Sequence record: PZ386980.1 | Origin: a phage | Direction: 5' to 3' (one strand) | DNA: 64,000 nucleotides | Shown here: positions 6,879 to 35,558 of the stretch, in pieces | How the letters are laid out: the number at the start of each line of letters is the position of its first letter | Numbering within the stretch: the first letter of the stretch is position 1 | The notes under the pieces: generated by a model | Told to the model about the DNA's origin: nothing | The model's input: the letters and a program-made list of their open reading frames with translations, nothing else | Databases searched by the model: none | Made by a program: the position numbers and the translations under genes

Positions 6879-7419
6879 ATAAAAAATCCAAACTAGGAGA
6901 ATCGTCTACAACACTTTTCTTTTCAGCCCCCGGTGTTCTATAGGTTGATTCTTCGTAATGCGTCATTTTATCATAGATGTCTTGAATAAAAGTTTCATCT
7001 ACTAACGCAACCATATCGTCGTCACGACTGTCATAGACATTGTGAACGAAGTAACTATATTTCTTTGCAACTTCCTTACGTTCTTTTTTAATACGTTGGA
7101 CGAATGCATTAAAACAAGCTTGAGTTATATACGCATGTGGGTTTTTATATTTCGTTTCATCAAAATTGTGAAGCCCCTTAATAGAAGCTTCTATACCATC
7201 TGCAATCATTTCTTGTTTCCAAGACTGGGTGTATCCTGAAAAGTTGAAACGTTTAGATAAGCCTTCTGCAATAAGCATAATGGCTAATCCGATAGTATCA
7301 TTCTGACGAACTACTTTATTTGGGTCTTTATTATTTGCTAATTCTGTTTTCCAATCAATAATAGCTTGTAAAAGCTCTTTATTGTTTACGTAATTATATT
7401 TAGGCTTAGTTTCTGACAT
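6862..7419 (-). CDS. 55: Late-transcription sigma factor gp55
   Basis: 185 aa from ATG at 7419 (track start is GTG two codons upstream); [17 protein letters not shown] matches recalled T4 gp55; GAGGTG Shine-Dalgarno. Confidence 0.9.
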
Positions 7420-20693: not shown

Positions 20694-21413
20694 TTAGGAT
20701 TCTTCTAAATGTCTTTTCTGAAAAGTTGATACCATACTACGATACGGTTCATTTGGATATCCGTGTTTTATAGCTTCCTTTGTAAATTTTCTCCATCCAT
20801 ATTTAGTTTCTTTCCAAAGCTCGAATAATTCATCTTCATATTGCCATATAGTTAAATGAGAACGCTTTGCAGCTTTAATTCCATTAATATGCTTTTCTTT
20901 TACTACAGGATTGCTTAGTTTCTTTTTAATAATATTACTAACTTTTCTAACAAAAACTGGGTCCTTATATCGTTGCGAAGTTTTTATTGAAGTGTTTAAT
21001 TTAGCTTCCGGCGTGGATGTGACCTCTTTCATCTTTTTCTTCATATGCTGTATATGATTAGGATTTTTCCATAAATTTATAGAATGCTTTTTGCATTTTA
21101 TCCTAGTTTCATCTGCAACCTTTCCTCCTTCACCCCCGTATGACAGGTTAACACAGTTTTTTCCATATTTCAATTTACCTGCCATGATATATAATATTTC
21201 AGCTTGTACCATTTTATCATAATTATCAAAAACTTCTAAAACCGTTTTTGATAATATGTGGTCATTTGACACTTTTACACGTTCTATATAATTTCCACTA
21301 CCAACATACGAATCATTGATGTTATTAGTTATATGTCGACCATAATAGTATTTCTTAATACCTGTCTTTAAATTTAATATTTCAGTTTTATAGATAGTAA
21401 AATATTTTTTCAT
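20694..21413 (-). CDS. GIY-YIG homing endonuclease (Seg-like)
   Basis: 239 aa; N-terminal FTIYKTE...KKYYYGRH...SYVGSG GIY-YIG motifs; basic C-terminal half; ATGA overlap with upstream AAA ATPase gene. Confidence 0.7.
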   Translation of the reverse strand: MKKYFTIYKTEILNLKTGIKKYYYGRHITNNINDSYVGSGNYIERVKVSNDHILSKTVLEVFDNYDKMVQAEILYIMAGKLKYGKNCVNLSYGGEGGKVADETRIKCKKHSINLWKNPNHIQHMKKKMKEVTSTPEAKLNTSIKTSQRYKDPVFVRKVSNIIKKKLSNPVVKEKHINGIKAAKRSHLTIWQYEDELFELWKETKYGWRKFTKEAIKHGYPNEPYRSMVSTFQKRHLEES

Positions 21414-22378: not shown

Positions 22379-22409
22379 TTTATTCTCCAAATCTGTATCA
22401 GTTGATAGT

Positions 22410-22465
22410 TGTATAGTACCATAAAGCTTTATGCTTGTAAACAACTTTGTGAAAAATTTTTGAAA
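22410..22465 (-). promoter_or_regulatory. T4-type early promoter (promoter part of a stem-loop/promoter cassette)
   Basis: UP element, -35 GTTTAC, TGg extended -10 TACTAT, conserved ACAACTATCAAC leader; directly downstream of hairpin 22473..22490. Confidence 0.55.
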
Positions 22466-22472
22466 TAAAAAA

Positions 22473-22490
22473 GGGAGCCCGAAGGCTCCC
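22473..22490 (-). terminator. Rho-independent terminator
   Basis: gggagcccgaaggctccc (UUCG loop on transcript) followed by UUUUUUAUUU. Confidence 0.6.
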
Positions 22491-22492
22491 TA

Positions 22493-23506
22493 TCATTTAT
22501 AATAACTTCGATGGTTTTCGAGATACACCTTCTCAAGGAAGTCATCCCAGAAACCCATGTCTACTTTTTGCTGCATACCGTTCTTAGAAGCTTCAGTAGA
22601 TGCTGCTTCTACTTGATCGACCACATCTTCCAAAAACTCTTGAACTGTTTTAAATGGATGTTTACCCAACTTCACGTCGAGAATAAATGGAGCATCTTGG
22701 AGTGGATAAATCAAGTCGCCAGTTTTGTAAATTTCCAATAGTTGAAGTCCACCACGACAAGCATGACTTAGTGCTTTCCAATCAATGCCTTCATTGGCTT
22801 CGGCCTTACGAGCACGTTCACCATATTCAGCATCTAATTTGTTCAGTGACTGCTTAAGCTCAATAAGAGAAAGCGTTGTCTGATATTTACGACCCAACAC
22901 AGTGTAGAACGTTTGCGGGCCTGTTTTCTCGTGATTATGGAACACCCATTCACAGAATTCGTTTTCTGGAAGACGATGCTTAATATCTTCAATTTTAGTG
23001 CGACGTTGTCCTTGTGTTCCATCTTCTCGGTAGACATTCCGTTGATCAGGAATTTGATTAACTACTTTCAATACATCACGTAATGCAGCCAAACGAGAAC
23101 CCTTGACACCGTATTTAGAAGCTTGCTTGCGAACATATCCTAAATAGGATTTCATGTTAGTCGTATAAAAACGAGAACGGTTGTCTTGAATAAACTTCCA
23201 CACATCAGGCAAATCTGATTTAACTACTAGCTCAGGTGGAGTGTGAAGCATATCCAATGCTACGGTTTCACCATCTGCTGCTAATTTAAAGAAATATTTA
23301 AGACTGTATAGTTCATGGTCAATATCATCTTTAGTGTTTTTAGATGATGTGTTGTTAGTGTTTTTACTCATGTGCTCTTTGACATTTCCGATAAGAATAT
23401 CACGAGCAGGAGGAACAAAGATTTCTTTAAAATCTACATCAGATTCTGGGGTAGAAGTTCCATAAAGATGACTACCAAAATAGCTTTTCATTACTGTTTT
23501 CATCAT
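22493..23506 (-). CDS. Predicted nucleotidyltransferase (Pol-beta superfamily) with C-terminal helical domain
   Basis: 337 aa; N-terminal GSHLYGTSTPESDVDF fits the G[SG]x9-13D[hx]D NTase motif. Confidence 0.65.
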   Translation of the reverse strand: MMKTVMKSYFGSHLYGTSTPESDVDFKEIFVPPARDILIGNVKEHMSKNTNNTSSKNTKDDIDHELYSLKYFFKLAADGETVALDMLHTPPELVVKSDLPDVWKFIQDNRSRFYTTNMKSYLGYVRKQASKYGVKGSRLAALRDVLKVVNQIPDQRNVYREDGTQGQRRTKIEDIKHRLPENEFCEWVFHNHEKTGPQTFYTVLGRKYQTTLSLIELKQSLNKLDAEYGERARKAEANEGIDWKALSHACRGGLQLLEIYKTGDLIYPLQDAPFILDVKLGKHPFKTVQEFLEDVVDQVEAASTEASKNGMQQKVDMGFWDDFLEKVYLENHRSYYK

Positions 23507-23964
23507 TCAGCCTTATATTCAATAACAGGACATACTTTAGCTTTACGAGCTTTTAAAAATTCAACGATAATCGATTTCTTGGGTTGAATAGGAGGTAAAC
23601 CTTTATACGCCCTATCAATATTTTCTACGTGTAAAGCATAATCCTTTTTCCATTTATAATCTTTATATTTTTCACGCAAATGTGCAGGAATAACAAATGA
23701 ACCGATAATAAGTAAAACAACCAAAAGCGCAAGTATAAATGCTGATGGAAGCAAAGTCCATAAACTACCGAAAATAAGCCAACGTTGTAGGCTTTCTGCA
23801 CAAATAATTGTTAACCCTACGAGTATAGCACACCCAAAAATAGAAACGAAAAATGTAGGTATGGCAATAGACCAAAAATATGCGCATAGTGTCTTAGGTC
23901 GTTGCCATTCGTCGTTAAACAATTTGAATAATTTATAATGCCAAGAGTTTTCATTAATAATCAT
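23503..23964 (-). CDS. Membrane protein (2-3 predicted TM helices)
   Basis: 153 aa; long hydrophobic stretches. Confidence 0.55.
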   Translation of the reverse strand: MIINENSWHYKLFKLFNDEWQRPKTLCAYFWSIAIPTFFVSIFGCAILVGLTIICAESLQRWLIFGSLWTLLPSAFILALLVVLLIIGSFVIPAHLREKYKDYKWKKDYALHVENIDRAYKGLPPIQPKKSIIVEFLKARKAKVCPVIEYKAE

Positions 23965-23966
23965 AA

Positions 23967-24488
23967 TTATCCTTTCATTGAAGGCGTAACGGTTGTTAAA
24001 TACTTAATCATAGCTTCAGCTTCTGATTTTGATAATGAAATTTCTCCATTGCTTTGACGAATAGAAATAAAATCCGGATGACGGTCACCACCAGCTTTTA
24101 AAACACACATATAAGTATCAACTTCGCCTTCAATATTTGAAATGATTGAAGCAGTTCCACATGAATGCGGTTTTTGATAAATCAATACAGCTTTTCTTCC
24201 ACCATTTGACTGTTCATAGGCTTTTAATACATCAAACAAATCAGTTCTTTTATCAATAGCTAAAATGTTATTTTCATCTTCAATGTTAAATCCTTCGGAT
24301 ACTTCATAAAGCGTTACCCATAAATCACCGATGTCAATAACAGCATTTACTTTTCCACAGCTTTCAAGAGTATGACAAATTTTCTTGATTTCGTCATAAC
24401 TCATTTTAATAATATCATCTCCTTGGCTAAGAAAGATGTCATTTTTAAATTCAACACGAATTAAACCACTTCCACTTGAAATAAACAT
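23967..24488 (-). CDS. Uncharacterised protein, paralog pair member A
   Basis: 173 aa; shares GFNIE... and C-terminal SKSEAEAMIKYLTTVTPSM motif with 24495..25040. Confidence 0.55.
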   Translation of the reverse strand: MFISSGSGLIRVEFKNDIFLSQGDDIIKMSYDEIKKICHTLESCGKVNAVIDIGDLWVTLYEVSEGFNIEDENNILAIDKRTDLFDVLKAYEQSNGGRKAVLIYQKPHSCGTASIISNIEGEVDTYMCVLKAGGDRHPDFISIRQSNGEISLSKSEAEAMIKYLTTVTPSMKG

Positions 24489-24494
24489 ATTTCC

Positions 24495-25040
24495 TCACTT
24501 TGAAATCATAGTTGGAATAACAGAATCAAGATAAGTCTTTAGTGCAATAGCTTCGTCTTTGGTAAATGTAATGATATGTGATCGAAAATCGTCAATTTGA
24601 CGAATAGATACTACATCTCCCTCTTCATAGCATTTTGACACATTTAAAATAGTTTCATCATTCTGATTGCAAGCGTTAGTAATAATAGCATTGCAATTTT
24701 TAAACCATTTTAAACTATGTTTTCTTTCATTAGAATAATAAAAATATTTAATCTTATCTATAAAACTATCCCAATGGATAACTGATAAGCATATTGACTC
24801 GCTTTCAATATTAAATCCTGGGCATGAAGAATAAAAATGAATTTTATGCTCATCATTAATGCTTACAATTTTATCAGTATAAGGATTTTCAATTTTGGTT
24901 AAATGAATGATTTCACTAGGCGTAAAATACAGCATATCGTCTTCTTGTGTCAAACGATACATATTATTTACTTTTTCTATAGCCAATTCACCAAAAAGTG
25001 AACTAACTTCTAATACTAATCGTTTCGCCTCGCTCATCAT
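24495..25040 (-). CDS. Uncharacterised protein, paralog pair member B
   Basis: 181 aa; C-terminal TKDEAIALKTYLDSVIPTM matches the paralog. Confidence 0.55.
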   Translation of the reverse strand: MMSEAKRLVLEVSSLFGELAIEKVNNMYRLTQEDDMLYFTPSEIIHLTKIENPYTDKIVSINDEHKIHFYSSCPGFNIESESICLSVIHWDSFIDKIKYFYYSNERKHSLKWFKNCNAIITNACNQNDETILNVSKCYEEGDVVSIRQIDDFRSHIITFTKDEAIALKTYLDSVIPTMISK

Positions 25041-25169
25041 TACATACTCCTTTGAACCATATCAATAATGTTATTCACCAGATTATAAGTAAACATTGGG
25101 TAATTATATTGAATCATCACATACACAACAAACAAAACTTTCATTCTCTTCTCCTTGGCAGTTGACAAG

Positions 25170-25215
25170 ATTACTATACCATAACCTTGCCAACTTGTAA
25201 ACCATTAAATGGCGT
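25170..25215 (-). promoter_or_regulatory. Possible early promoter
   Basis: -35 GTTTAC with -10 TATAGT-like. Confidence 0.45.
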
Positions 25216-25367
25216 TTTCAATAAAATTCTGAAGCTTTGTGTGAGCATCAACCATGATTTTCATTTCTTCTTTGGCGAAAGCTGTACCTCTTTCCCGAGA
25301 AGAACATTCATAGTCAGAAACTGCATTAGCATATTCTTCGATTAGTTTCATTAAAAACATCTGTTTT

Positions 25368-25562
25368 TCAGTTTTCATTATTCCACCTAATCATTTCAAG
25401 ATATTGAACTAACTTAGCTTTAGATTTATCCAAATCCTTTTTAGCTGCTTCTATACCGTCGTATGAATATCCTTCACAATGCTCAACTGCTAATTGATAT
25501 GAATCTATTTCAATATCACGTGCTAATTTAATGATTTTTTCAAACTGTTCGCGTGTTAGCAT
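25368..25562 (-). CDS. Hypothetical small protein
   Basis: ORF track. Confidence 0.45.
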   Translation of the reverse strand: MLTREQFEKIIKLARDIEIDSYQLAVEHCEGYSYDGIEAAKKDLDKSKAKLVQYLEMIRWNNEN

Positions 25563-25564
25563 AC

Positions 25565-25804
25565 TTACACTCTCGTATTATGATCGATAATTTCATCAAG
25601 AAACATATCTAACGCTTCTATAGCATTATCCACTTTAGTTTCAAAGTCTTTAATGCCTTTATTCGAAATACCCGATGAATACCAAGCAAAGTCAATCAGC
25701 TCTTCATCTGCTTTACGAATTGAAGCCACTAATTCCTTGATTTTATCTGCTTGCTCTATACTAATCATTATTCCACCACATATGACAGAGAGAATATTGC
25801 ACAC
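25565..25804 (-). CDS. Hypothetical small protein
   Basis: ORF track. Confidence 0.45.
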
Positions 25805-25956
25805 GCCATGTGAGTTGCAACTTCATCACACATATTATAACGTTTCTTAAGAAGTTCTACAAGTTCTTCACTAGTAACTTCATCCATGTCGACGAAAAAA
25901 TCACCATTAATGATGACGTAGATATTTCCTTCTTGATTGAGTGCTTCAATTTTCAT
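25768..25956 (-). CDS. Hypothetical small acidic protein
   Basis: Track ORF trimmed to first ATG with GAGGAG Shine-Dalgarno. Confidence 0.4.
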
Positions 25957-25979
25957 GATGTTCTCCTCTTTATCTGATA

Positions 25980-26030
25980 GTTGTATAGTATCACAGCTCA
26001 AACGGAAAGTAAACCGGTAAAATGAAAAAA
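25980..26030 (-). promoter_or_regulatory. T4-type early promoter (promoter part of a stem-loop/promoter cassette)
   Basis: -35 GGTTTAC, -10 TACTAT, conserved ACAACTATCA leader; directly downstream of hairpin 26031..26046. Confidence 0.5.
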
Positions 26031-26046
26031 GTCTCCCGAAGGAGAC
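26031..26046 (-). terminator. Rho-independent terminator
   Basis: gtctcccgaaggagac followed by UUUUUUCAUUUU. Confidence 0.6.
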
Positions 26047-26051
26047 TAATG

Positions 26052-26438
26052 TTATTCGAGGGAAAGAAGATACTTACTCTGGTAAAACATTCCAGTAATA
26101 TCATCTATCGTGCTTTGAATGGCTGGAGGCATTTCTTTATAAATGCTGTTAGATTGGTCTAGTATGCGATCAATCATTTTAATTGTGTCGGTAGGAAGTT
26201 TACTGGCATCTGGAATTGAAGGTGTGTATTTTCTACCAGAATACCCCAAATATTGCTCACCAAATTTATCAATCAAATCTGGCAACTCGGAGAAAATAAA
26301 ATCGTATGCTTTGTGTCTAGCATAACTTTTAGTTTCAAAATGTGCAGAATGAAAATAAGCTTGTGCAGCCATTAATAAACCTAAGTATTCATCTGCCTTT
26401 GAAGGTTTTCCACTTTGTGAAAAGTCGCTGAATTTCAT
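26052..26438 (-). CDS. Hypothetical protein upstream of rI (rI.-1 position)
   Basis: 128 aa; overlaps rI stop. Confidence 0.5.
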
Positions 26439-26728
26439 TCAGTCTCCAATTTAATGTTCATAATTCTAGCGTATGATTGTGCCATCTCCGCGCCTCGTTC
26501 TATACATTCAAAATCAGAAGAGCACGGGTCATTTTTATAGGTCGTTCTCATAAAACTATAGAACTGTTCAGATGATTCTACGCTTTTATTTTCAAAAAGC
26601 ATATAAACATGTCTAATACCAGATTCCATAAATTTATCAAAATGAGGATCGACATTCGCTTCAATTGGTGGAGATAAAGCAAATGACAATCCTAGCATGG
26701 CAAAAAGTGCCGTTGCTTTTAAGGCCAT
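26435..26728 (-). CDS. rI: Lysis-inhibition regulator rI
   Basis: 97 aa; MALKATALFAMLGLSF signal anchor; matches recalled T4 RI; sits just before tk. Confidence 0.85.
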   Translation of the reverse strand: MALKATALFAMLGLSFALSPPIEANVDPHFDKFMESGIRHVYMLFENKSVESSEQFYSFMRTTYKNDPCSSDFECIERGAEMAQSYARIMNIKLETE

Positions 26729-26740
26729 AAAGGCCTCCTA

Positions 26741-26953
26741 TCATTTTTGTCCTGTATTTACTTTATGCCGATGCACGGCCTTAACTTTATCAAGGTATTT
26801 TTCAAAATTTCGCAATCTAGTATAGTCTGCCGGAGATTGGTTGAGTGATACTTCTCGACGCAAAGCTGAAATGATATTTCCAACTTCCCTACGAATTTCA
26901 TCTAATTGAAGCACAGTAAGATTGCGAAGTTGCTTTTCAGTTAATTGTAGCAT
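26741..26953 (-). CDS. Hypothetical protein
   Basis: ORF track (70 aa). Confidence 0.5.
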
Positions 26954-27586: not shown

Positions 27587-27772
27587 TTAAAGCGTATTCA
27601 CATAAGCTATTAATTCATTTTCTTTCTTATCAAACCGATCAGCAAATTCTTCCTGCTGTTCAGGAGATAGCGGGCCGTATTCATCATAAAAGGTGTTTGC
27701 TTCTGTATGCTCATCTAGAAGTTCATGGATAAGCTCAAACAATTTATCTTTTTGTTCTTTACTCAGACTCAT
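27587..27772 (-). CDS. Hypothetical small acidic protein
   Basis: ORF track. Confidence 0.5.
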   Translation of the reverse strand: MSLSKEQKDKLFELIHELLDEHTEANTFYDEYGPLSPEQQEEFADRFDKKENELIAYVNTL

Positions 27773-27942
27773 ATATTAATTTCCAGGAGTTTTAAAATAA
27801 TTCGCTTTTGCTTAAATATTTCCATAGTTAAATGACTAGTATCTTTTTGACCGATTCCAATGGCAAAACCTTTATTAACAGCGAGTTCAATTAAATTATC
27901 AAGCTCACGTAACACTTCGTATTGTAACTCAAAACTATTCAT
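27769..27942 (-). CDS. Hypothetical small protein (57 aa, below track cutoff)
   Basis: Hand-translated MNSFELQYEVLRELDNLIELAVNKGF...; ATGA overlaps at both ends. Confidence 0.45.
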   Translation of the reverse strand: MNSFELQYEVLRELDNLIELAVNKGFAIGIGQKDTSHLTMEIFKQKRIILKLLEINI

Positions 27943-28166
27943 TTTGGTTTACCTTCTTTAACGAAATCAGGATAAGGATAAAATCCTGAATAAAATCCTT
28001 CACCTTTATGATTGATGCATCCTTTATTAGAACAATAGCACCAATAATCGAAATCACAAGCCATTTCATCATTACATAAAGCAAAAACAACCGGCCACTT
28101 ACACTTTTCACAATGGGCATTTTTAAGAATACTAGTTTGGCTCATAACCATGTCACCTTCAAGCAA
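27939..28166 (-). CDS. Cys-rich small protein (probable zinc binding)
   Basis: 75 aa; HCEKCKW...C...C..C.CSNKGC. Confidence 0.5.
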   Translation of the reverse strand: MLEGDMVMSQTSILKNAHCEKCKWPVVFALCNDEMACDFDYWCYCSNKGCINHKGEGFYSGFYPYPDFVKEGKPK

Positions 28167-34792: not shown

Positions 34793-35163
34793 TTAATTTT
34801 CCTACAATCACTCACAAACTCTTCCATTGATTCTTTTTCAATATAAGACATGTAGCTATTATATTCCTTTAATTGTATTTTGTAATCTTTTTTTCTTTGC
34901 CAATTTATTTTAAAATTATCATAATGAAAATATAACATGGTACCAAAGAATGAAAATAATGAAATCGCTATAGTATAATGAAGTTCACTCCAAACTTCTA
35001 TTATATCTATTATACCGCTGACGTTACTACGGATGTTTAAAATAAGACAGTCAATTAACAATCCAAAAAGACTACCCGCAAGAGCTGCAGCCAACGCTAC
35101 AGCAAAAATTAAAAATGACTCAGGAAGAGAATATTTGACTTTATTTAGTTTTGGCTTTTGCAT
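34789..35163 (-). CDS. Membrane protein, CRK-tail family member
   Basis: 124 aa; two hydrophobic helices; ends FVSDCRKIK. Confidence 0.55.
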   Translation of the reverse strand: MQKPKLNKVKYSLPESFLIFAVALAAALAGSLFGLLIDCLILNIRSNVSGIIDIIEVWSELHYTIAISLFSFFGTMLYFHYDNFKINWQRKKDYKIQLKEYNSYMSYIEKESMEEFVSDCRKIK

Positions 35164-35558
35164 CGCGATTCCTTAACAAATTTCATAATTTCATCAAATT
35201 CATGCGCAGCAAGTTTAAGCTGATGTTCCTTTTTAATCTTTTTACACTGAGCTTTCCAATCACGTACACGTTTACGATAGTGTCTTCCTTGATACCAATA
35301 TCCTATCCAATTTATAGGTACTAATAAAAGCGGAACTACCAACGGAAGAATTAGTGTTGCTCCAAATATTGCACCAGATTCAATATCAGTCATAACGTCT
35401 ATAACCATTCCAGCAATCACCAGAATCACAAATGATACAACTACCACAGGACCTATTAACACATCAGTAGAAATTATCTGACGCTTTAATTCATACTTCA
35501 ACGGTTTACTTGGAAGGTATAGTGATGGTTTTGACATATTCTCTACATTCCTTAACAA
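35145..35558 (-). CDS. Membrane protein, CRK-tail family member
   Basis: 137 aa; two hydrophobic helices; ends KFVKESRCKSQN. Confidence 0.55.
   Translation of the reverse strand: MLRNVENMSKPSLYLPSKPLKYELKRQIISTDVLIGPVVVVSFVILVIAGMVIDVMTDIESGAIFGATLILPLVVPLLLVPINWIGYWYQGRHYRKRVRDWKAQCKKIKKEHQLKLAAHEFDEIMKFVKESRCKSQN

Follow-up and report, generated by a model that had tools for sequence, protein, structure and literature searches.

What do two similar soluble proteins and a small membrane protein do side by side in a T4-like phage, at the place where T4 itself carries mobD? The question arises from a 64,000-nucleotide stretch of phage DNA (PZ386980.1; here called the window) that is 100% identical to phages RB51 and RB68. 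The ORF listing gives three adjacent ORFs, which in transcription order belong to the run mobD.2-mobD.1-ORF097c-ORF096c-nrdC.11, with an early-promoter-like site at its head and a terminator-like hairpin at its end (Table 1). The first-pass annotation had the paralogs following the membrane protein. Since all three genes lie on the minus strand, the order is the reverse, and the membrane gene comes after the paralogs in transcription. At the far end of the run, the nrdC.11 start and the ORF096c stop overlap (ATGA).

The alignment offset places the transcription start expected from the promoter-like site at T4 ~57953 and, judged from this alignment, the putative promoter is positionally equivalent to Pe57954/Pe57.9; both names denote T4 early promoters (PMC6024815). 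The T4 interval from nrdC.11 to mobD.3 is deletable (PMC9825161). A Pfam search with the mobD.2 product gave no match.

Table 1. Features of the locus, in order of transcription (window coordinates)
Feature	Position	Strand	Basis or remark
Early-promoter-like site, sigma-70 type, TTTACA-17-TATAGT with TG	25173..25201	-	Promoter scan, 10/12 matches; upstream of mobD.2
mobD.2, 34 aa, first gene of the transcription unit	25040..25144	-	RB51 annotation
mobD.1 ortholog, 181 aa, acidic soluble protein, predicted PUR/Whirly-fold N-domain and y05I_C C-domain	24495..25040	-	
MobD.1 C-terminal hallmark motif FTKDEAIALKTYLDSVIPTM, residues 159-178	24507..24566	-	Sequence reading
RB32ORF097c, 173 aa, divergent mobD.1 paralog sharing both domains	23967..24488	-	Missing from T4
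ORF097c C-terminal hallmark motif LSKSEAEAMIKYLTTVTPSM, residues 152-171	23976..24035	-	Sequence reading, alignment
RB32ORF096c, 153 aa, predicted two-transmembrane hairpin protein	23503..23964	-	Missing from T4
962-bp cassette: ORF097c from codon 7 on, plus ORF096c	23508..24469		blastn break points, junction alignments
nrdC.11, RlaP-family nucleotidyltransferase, last gene of the unit	22493..23506	-	Annotation, Pfam, PHROG
Intrinsic-terminator-like hairpin, 8 pairs (6 G-C), then T run	22472..22491	-	Directly after nrdC.11

Relationship of MobD.1 and ORF097c

The two soluble proteins had been called homologous on the strength of a shared GFNIE and a C-terminal peptide, and pairwise alignment bore this out. 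BLASTP aligned them with E=1e-10 and 26% identity over 175 columns, nearly the full length of both, in an alignment that covers GFNIE as well as the C-terminal peptide. ORF097c and MobD.1 scored 115.2 and 130 bits, respectively, with PF24449 (T4_y05I_N; gathering cut-off, 24.9 bits) and 78.1 and 76.8 bits with PF24448 (T4_y05I_C; cut-off, 27 bits), and both matched phrog_1502. Taken together, these results put the similarity well beyond chance. The 64-kb window has no further copy of y05I, as T4 MobD.1 is called in UniProt style, and the whole family drew no more than 27 hits in a set of 1.84 billion representative proteins; on this sequence evidence, the two proteins belong, as divergent members, to one small family that occurs only in T4-like phages. 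The paralogy is already in GenBank, where the ORF097c record is annotated "similar to mobD.1."

As to origin, the proposal of duplication followed by divergence holds insofar as the proteins are paralogs, but the event was not a recent one. In a neighbor-joining tree, the ORF097c clade lies outside the clade that unites the MobD.1 proteins of Tequatrovirus, Mosigvirus, and Dhakavirus. On this branching, ORF097c is an old or fast-evolving paralog or else an acquired homolog, and not the product of a recent tandem duplication. Conservation in the family is highest in the C-terminal hallmark motif (helix and tail), and the terminal YLxxV(I/T)P(T/S)M of this motif is conserved across 17 diverse members. 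Comparisons of locus genes with appreciable divergence gave dN/dS values of 0.09-0.19. Copy number varies recurrently: besides the two full-length copies found here, there are a chimeric single copy and, in two loci (L022 and L024), two tandem C-only copies. In 13 stretches, a 1572-aa repeat protein also matched the C-domain profile; we attribute this to its repeats and regard it as a false positive.

A literature search on y05I returned only unrelated papers, and in the literature searched, mobD.1 is mentioned only as a flank of mobD, in a homing-endonuclease review (PMC2988022).

Comparison with T4 at the mobD site

Comparison with the T4 interval showed ~94% identity in both flanks (window 22401-23507 and 24470-25400). 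Between sharp break points at 23507/23508 and 24469/24470, with collinear, highly similar genes on either side, blastn showed that T4 has 808 bp carrying mobD in place of the 962 bp from 23508 to 24469. The loss of collinearity that the first-pass annotation had claimed where T4 has mobD is thus real, but it does not extend to mobD.1. The window's mobD.1 ORF is the direct ortholog of T4 MobD.1, equal in length and position and with ~94% nucleotide identity, whereas ORF097c is only 26-28% identical to that protein. Because mobD.1 is collinear, the replacement is limited to ORF097c and the membrane gene. Edgell and colleagues placed the mobD insertion site in the interval from nrdC.11 to mobD.1 (PMC2988022), and the RB51 cassette is the alternative content of this site.

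Which of the two states came first? The view that the content here had been replaced relative to T4 has the polarity the wrong way round. The RB51 layout is found in ~450 of 505 related records (~90%), with ORF097c at ≥90% identity in ~434 records, and mobD is found in 47 of the 505. Furthermore, junction alignment showed that T4 retains the ORF097c ribosome-binding site and first six codons (MFISSG) upstream of mobD. Since the RB51 layout is the commoner one and T4 keeps this remnant, T4 appears to have lost the cassette, with no gain in RB51, and on the sequence evidence T4 is the derived state. T4 lacks ORF097c and ORF096c because mobD occupies their place. This free-standing HNH homing-endonuclease gene has no homology to either of them and is preceded by a 23-codon leader ORF, which begins with the ORF097c ribosome-binding site and six codons. 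The site is a clean example of a homing-endonuclease gene that displaced two residents and kept the translation start of the first. Since GenBank and Pfam already contain these genes, the resemblance between them, and models of the family, the gain to the catalogue is small. T4 is atypical here, however, and RB51-type phages are therefore preferable for studying the module proposed below.

A y05I_C gene precedes the membrane gene in 31 of 72 loci

We examined 72 IMG/VR loci selected for the presence of the membrane gene. A y05I_C ORF was present in 31 of them, and in all 31 it directly precedes the membrane gene, ending within ~30 nt of its start. The same adjacency occurs in named Mosigvirus, Dhakavirus, Jiaodavirus, Gelderlandvirus, and Karamvirus phages and in an unclassified Yersinia phage. 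The other 41 loci, including those of Aeromonas phages, had no recognizable y05I_C neighbor. The upstream ORFs in those 41 are heterogeneous; one 136-aa family has a C terminus that faintly resembles the motif.

NrdC.11 lies downstream in nearly all y05I_C loci. Several genera keep the C-domain only, and stand-alone C-domain proteins of 68-87 aa exist. The conserved adjacency supports a link, as read from gene order, between the membrane protein and a soluble partner, and the conserved pair (C-domain protein, then membrane protein) gives an orphan family a concrete candidate partner. In T4, where the membrane protein is missing, MobD.1 is still intact; this member of the pair, at least, may therefore act on its own. 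In T2 (LC348380), mobD.1, ORF097c, and ORF096c are all frameshifted, which could partly reflect sequencing artifacts; in a second T2 record (MH751506), the membrane gene alone was checked, and it matched residues 28-153 only.

ORF096c itself has two hydrophobic stretches, at about residues 29-57 and 64-95, and is predicted to have both ends in the cytoplasm, with a basic tail and a periplasmic loop of only ~6 unconserved residues. Its conserved elements are MxINxxSWH / LCxYFW at the N terminus and KA(R/K)KxKxCP at the C terminus, and all of its invariant residues fall in predicted cytoplasmic segments or where the first helix meets the cytoplasm. Conservation of the gene extends across phage genera that differ in hosts and receptors. 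Its dN/dS is 0.14-0.18. Searches of Pfam, NCBIfam, and PADLOC, including known superinfection-exclusion and defense families, gave no significant match. A reading as a holin was rejected, there being no match to a holin family and the gene run being headed by an early promoter rather than belonging to a lysis cassette. A weak HMM match of the window ORF at 35145-35558 to the ORF096c profile was likewise rejected (hhalign probability, 5%).

Predicted fold and charge of the y05I proteins

AlphaFold2 (AF2) modeled the N-domain with a pLDDT of ~90 as two consecutive strand-strand-strand-strand-helix repeats in one domain, a fold of the PUR/Whirly or PC4-like type I. The C-domain was modeled as five strands plus one helix, with a pLDDT of 45-58 for ORF097c and 60-83 for MobD.1, and the motif FTKxEAxALxxYLxxVIPTM lies in its helix and tail. 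When repeat I was compared with the C-domain by hhalign, the two aligned in register with P=5e-4 at a probability of only 30%, and HMM cross-hits agreed. We infer that the C-domain may be a third repeat, which would give the modeled proteins a Pur-alpha-like three-repeat layout.

The top structural neighbors are the nucleic-acid binders Pur-alpha, MRP1/2, PBF-2, and StWhy2; other neighbors, SsgA-like proteins and a type VII secretion chaperone, have no nucleic-acid-binding annotation. At the sequence level, neither ORF097c nor MobD.1 matched the Pfam PUR or Whirly families (no PUR hit at E up to 1), and neither had a match among the sequences of solved structures. The NCBIfam search also gave no match, and PADLOC returned only a 15-bit hit to MobD.1 (E=0.002). 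The N-domain is strongly acidic, with an average net charge of -10 (range, -20 to -5). Ten of its columns are at least 80% Asp/Glu, several of them on strands, and none is at least 80% Lys/Arg.

Interpretation

What might these proteins do? That they bind single-stranded DNA or RNA as regulators (transcription or RNA factors) like Pur-alpha, Whirly, and MRP1/2, independently of the membrane protein and perhaps serving NrdC.11 in RNA metabolism, is suggested by their top structural neighbors and by the Pfam label of the y05I family, "putative transcription factor." The phage protein ChmC shows that a phage Whirly fold can bind RNA (PMC11077065), NrdC.11, downstream in nearly all y05I_C loci, matches RlaP, and T4 MobD.1 persists without the membrane gene. 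The Pfam label, however, derives from the fold alone, and conserved acidity speaks against it: ten acidic columns, an average charge of -10, and no conserved Lys/Arg column are not what such a binder would lead one to expect, the PUR and Whirly families gave no sequence match, and the same fold occurs in the SsgA-like and secretion chaperone proteins. Adjacency to the membrane gene is also left unexplained, and we consider this reading unlikely. The strong acidity of the family instead leads us to propose the fold as a protein-binding or nucleic-acid-mimicking module rather than a classical single-strand binder. Proteins of acidic net charge can, strictly speaking, still bind nucleic acid.

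A nucleic-acid-binding scaffold whose negative charge is strong and conserved would also suit stand-alone decoys, acidic mimics that neutralize a host DNA- or RNA-binding protein of defense or housekeeping, with the tandem copies a product of an arms race and the membrane gene a mere neighbor. The recurrent change in copy number, the early expression implied by promoter context, and the nonessential nature of the genes (PMC9825161) are consistent with this. Conservation peaks, however, in the C-terminal helix and tail and not in the acidic N-domain, several genera keep the C-domain alone, and the strict adjacency of the membrane gene (31/31 loci) is unaccounted for; we think such free-standing decoys quite improbable. 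The idea originally put forward is that the membrane protein and its soluble partners act in superinfection exclusion or at the envelope by blocking entry of related phages. T4 Imm, also a small membrane protein, counts in its favor, as do the small size and predicted inner-membrane location of ORF096c, its early transcription (by promoter context), and its place in an accessory region. The genes are dispensable in the laboratory (PMC9825161) and decayed in T2. Against this, the databases searched returned no known exclusion protein, the soluble partners read as cytoplasmic, without a signal peptide, and the predicted topology leaves a tiny, unconserved loop outside and the invariant residues inside. 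Conservation of ORF096c across genera with different hosts and receptors means that an intracellular target fits better. On these predictions, the exclusion or envelope idea is mildly disfavored, and as the full explanation of the locus we rate it very unlikely.

The explanation that we favor, with a confidence somewhat short of even, is that of a y05I family locus, partly replaced by mobD in T4, whose acidic proteins dimerize and work with the membrane protein. The C-terminal repeat would join ORF097c and MobD.1 into homo- or heterodimers, and the conserved C-domain would mediate their joint work with the cotranscribed two-helix membrane protein, the y05I proteins probably docking on the conserved, basic cytoplasmic segments of ORF096c. 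The module may provide a nonessential early accessory function. More specifically, and more doubtfully, the y05I_C protein and the two-helix membrane protein could be a conserved early module of T-even-like phages, in which a Pur-alpha-like three-repeat scaffold became acidic and now docks at the membrane to bind proteins or mimic nucleic acid. If so, the module may counter host defense or control a membrane-associated step, and it would have been overlooked because T4 lost it to mobD and T2 has frameshifted remnants.

Comparison with known systems

Pur-alpha offers a parallel in layout: its repeats I and II form one domain and its third repeat forms the dimer, and the y05I models may have a similar three-repeat arrangement. 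The two differ in that sequence identity is 5-12% and that the y05I proteins are strongly acidic, with no conserved basic residue in the N-domain and a five-stranded C-repeat. Comparison with Whirly/PBF-2 p24, the trypanosome proteins MRP1/2, and phage ChmC likewise brings out differences. In MRP1/2, RNA is recognized mostly at its phosphate backbone through a beta-sheet, and in the Whirly-fold protein ChmC, mutation of Lys or Arg residues abolishes RNA binding (PMC11077065); in the y05I N-domain, no basic column is conserved. The likeness to SsgA-like proteins and DUF4176 type VII secretion chaperones, for which PDB titles give non-nucleic-acid roles, is one of fold only, with no sequence relationship detected and a different biology. 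The predicted topology of ORF096c resembles that of class II holins, which also have two helices, both ends in the cytoplasm, and a basic tail.

Gene content and family of the paralog pair

Positions 22400-26800 match Enterobacteria phages RB51 and RB68 at 100% identity, and at least 80% of this segment is covered in 431 phage records. The three ORFs singled out in the first-pass annotation, a membrane protein gene and a tandem paralog pair, were all present in an ORF listing at the positions tabulated below. Because of the RB51 record's remark on RB32ORF097c, the paralogy was already on record from the RB51 annotators.

Features of the nrdC.11-tk region and neighboring genes
Feature	Coordinates	Strand	Source	Remark
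RB32ORF093c	20694-21413	-	RB51 annotation	239 aa
Terminator-like hairpin	22491-22472	-	Sequence scan
nrdC.11	22493-23506	-	RB51 annotation
RB32ORF096c (ORF096c)	23503-23964	-	RB51 annotation	"similar to RB69ORF104c and 44RRORF212c"
RB32ORF097c (ORF097c)	23967-24488	-	RB51 annotation	"similar to mobD.1"
mobD.1	24495-25040	-	RB51 annotation
Strong sigma-70-type site (predicted)	25201-25173	-	Sequence scan
mobD.2a, mobD.3, mobD.4	25205-25768	-		Pfam DUF7438, E 4e-15 to 1e-17
mobD.2, then more small mobD.x genes, rI.-1, rI, tk		-	RB51 annotation

The genes of the locus are tightly packed, with spacers of 2 to 6 nt or overlapping stop and start codons. The expected transcription start projects, by the coordinate offset from T4 blastn, to T4 position ~57953, matching the T4 early promoter Pe57954/Pe57.9 (PMC6024815). 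The DUF7438 genes form a second array of three tandem paralogs adjoining the MobD.1/ORF097c pair, with four copies in some relatives (L084, a metagenomic contig).

MobD.1 and ORF097c align end to end (BLASTP E = 1e-10, 26% identity, 175 columns), and the shared GFNIE motif and C-terminal peptide that had drawn attention to the pair both lie inside this alignment. Both proteins match the Pfam N-domain PF24449 (T4_y05I_N) and C-domain PF24448 (T4_y05I_C; y05I_C) far above the gathering scores, both match phrog_1502, and an HMM scan of all ORFs found them to be the only family copies in the 64-kb window. The family is small, with 27 matches among 1.84 billion representative proteins in a profile search, the convincing ones coming from T4-like phages. 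The proposed duplication and divergence held as regards homology. In a neighbor-joining tree, the ORF097c clade, which takes in a 58%-identical variant, lies outside the clade uniting MobD.1 of Tequatrovirus, Mosigvirus, and Dhakavirus, which argues against recent local duplication. ORF097c may be a paralog that is ancient or rapidly evolving, or it may be a homolog gained by acquisition; this reading is tentative because the tree is distance based and midpoint rooted. Pairwise ortholog dN/dS is 0.09 to 0.19 for ORF097c, in comparisons with appreciable divergence, and 0.14 to 0.18 for ORF096c, and both are therefore kept as protein-coding genes.

The C-domain is modeled as five strands and one helix (pLDDT 45-58 in ORF097c and 60-83 in MobD.1), and in these models the C-terminal peptide corresponds to the last strand, helix, and tail. 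This peptide, with the consensus FTKxEAxALxxYLxSVIPTM, is the best-conserved part of the whole family. The C-domain is also encoded by itself, as proteins of 68 to 87 aa, in phages of Jiaodavirus, Karamvirus, and Gelderlandvirus and in Serratia phage X20 and Yersinia phage fHe-Yen9-01. In Mosigvirus and Dhakavirus, genes close to mobD.1 (L005, 1909-2115; L007, 2739-2936) specify 65-68-aa proteins of Pfam DUF7189; these show weak cross-matches with y05I repeat I (ORF097c residues 16-42) and one stand-alone y05I_C protein, and they may be single-repeat relatives of the family. The y05I_C profile also hit a large metagenomic repeat protein of 1572 aa, P0058, at 13 places (summed E = 2e-16); these hits are probably artefacts of the protein's Cys-containing repeats of roughly 50 aa, and P0058 was rejected as a member.

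The T4 arrangement is derived

In the same interval, T4 has nrdC.11, mobD (an HNH homing endonuclease gene), and mobD.1. By blastn, T4 is collinear, at ~94% identity, with 22401-23507 and 24470-25400, and the 962 bp between them (23508-24469) correspond to 808 unrelated T4 bases bearing mobD. The suggestion in the first-pass annotation that the locus content was replaced relative to T4 thus applies to this segment but not to mobD.1, which is simply the T4 ortholog, nor in direction, since mobD displaced the cassette.

One break point lies at the nrdC.11 start codon. At the other, T4 retains 27 identical bases, from the ribosome-binding site of ORF097c through its ATG and initial six codons (MFISSG), and then diverges; in T4 these codons open a 23-codon ORF with a stop overlapping the mobD start codon. 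This arrangement lies at about 7205-7278, minus strand, of the T4 locus (L003), and it suggests that mobD translation in T4 is coupled to the start signal of the displaced ORF097c. Only 47 of the 505 records matching the T4 flanks carry mobD; the remainder span ~1250 bp, the size expected of the RB51 cassette, and ORF097c is found at ≥90% identity in about 434 records. The start remnant and these counts show that T4 represents a derived, minority state in which mobD displaced ORF097c and ORF096c. The published mobD insertion site, nrdC.11/mobD.1, agrees with this comparison; the MobD cleavage target is listed there as unknown (PMC2988022).

Between nrdC.9 and nrdC.10, where T4 has no gene, RB51 carries RB32ORF093c, whose annotation notes similarity to seg site-specific intron-like DNA endonucleases; within 4 kb, RB51 and T4 thus have different homing-endonuclease genes. 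Another small cassette difference from T4 lies downstream of tk (27769-28166), where RB51 is missing tk.1 and contains two additional small ORFs, RB32ORF110c and 111c, between tk.2 and tk.3.

y05I_C genes are paired with the membrane gene

The two hydrophobic helices of ORF096c (about residues 29-57 and 64-95) are joined by a ~6-residue loop and followed by a basic C-tail of 60 residues; the positive-inside rule predicts that both ends are cytoplasmic. The protein falls in phrog_944 ("membrane protein") but has no significant Pfam match. Its homologs were found in 919 records, which come from phages of Escherichia, Klebsiella, Enterobacter, Salmonella, Yersinia, Serratia, and Aeromonas. In an alignment of eight lineages the helices are variable, and the invariant residues (M1, I3, N4, S7, W8, H9, P23, L26, C27, Y29, F30, W31, A139, K141, K143, C145, and P146) all fall either in parts predicted to be cytoplasmic or where the first helix meets the cytoplasm.

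A y05I_C ORF, full-length or stand-alone, lies directly upstream of the membrane gene in named Mosigvirus, Dhakavirus, Jiaodavirus, Gelderlandvirus, and Karamvirus phages and likewise in an unclassified Yersinia phage. Among 72 IMG/VR loci retrieved via the membrane protein, 31 contain such an ORF, and in every case (31/31) the ORF ends no more than about 30 nt from the membrane gene start; the other 41 are more distant, with unrelated upstream ORFs. Mosigvirus and Dhakavirus have one full-length copy, versus two in the RB51 window. Loci L022 and L024 (2545-3001) carry two tandem stand-alone y05I_C genes followed by the membrane gene, the second copy being much more divergent, an independent doubling at the same position. 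In metagenomic contigs L084-L086, a single gene (product P0011) combining the MobD.1 N-half with the ORF097c C-half precedes the membrane gene. In another chimera, P0053, the N-terminus of MobD.1 is fused to the C-terminus of NrdC.11; each of the two resembles the product of a recombinational deletion inside this locus.

In T2 (LC348380, 2437-3978), frameshifts spread each of mobD.1, the ORF097c-like gene, and ORF096c over two or three reading frames, which fits joint decay of one unit, although sequencing error may account for part of this. In a second T2 record (MH751506), where the membrane gene alone was compared, the membrane protein is matched from residue 28 only.

Possible function and relation to known systems

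We tentatively propose that MobD.1 and ORF097c dimerize via their C-terminal repeats, perhaps as MobD.1-ORF097c heterodimers; that the dimers display acidic PUR-like N-domains; and that the conserved C-domain cooperates with ORF096c at its cytoplasmic face. The three would then make up a non-essential early accessory module, the likeliest of the readings considered here but quite possible rather than probable. T4 is viable after loss of the nrdC.11-mobD.3 interval (PMC9825161). The intact MobD.1 of T4, which has no membrane gene beside it, counts against strict dependence on that gene. The soluble proteins might instead serve as a stand-alone acidic decoy, which their charge would suit; given the recurrent pairing with the membrane gene, we rate this as rather improbable. 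Superinfection exclusion, suggested in the first-pass annotation from a membrane protein with duplicated soluble partners, we judge very unlikely.

Pfam labels the y05I family "putative transcription factor," and a true nucleic-acid-binding regulator is a further, unlikely, alternative. The pI is 4.9 for ORF097c and 5.2 for MobD.1. Across 38 family members, the N-domain has a mean net charge of -10 (range, -20 to -5), ten columns in which Asp/Glu reach 80% or more, and no column in which Lys/Arg do so; the whole protein has a single conserved basic column, K161, which lies in the C-terminal helix. The phage Whirly-fold protein ChmC loses RNA binding on mutation of Lys or Arg (PMC11077065), whereas the y05I N-domain has no conserved basic column and thus lacks a defining functional feature of nucleic-acid-binding members. 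We would take the label as a statement about fold and no more.

Public records already contain the genes, their paralogy, and the family models, and the known insertion of mobD explains the difference from T4. To these our analysis adds the polarity of the mobD event, a fold assignment with its charge caveat, an interpretation of the C-terminal motif, and the conserved pairing of a y05I_C gene with the membrane gene.
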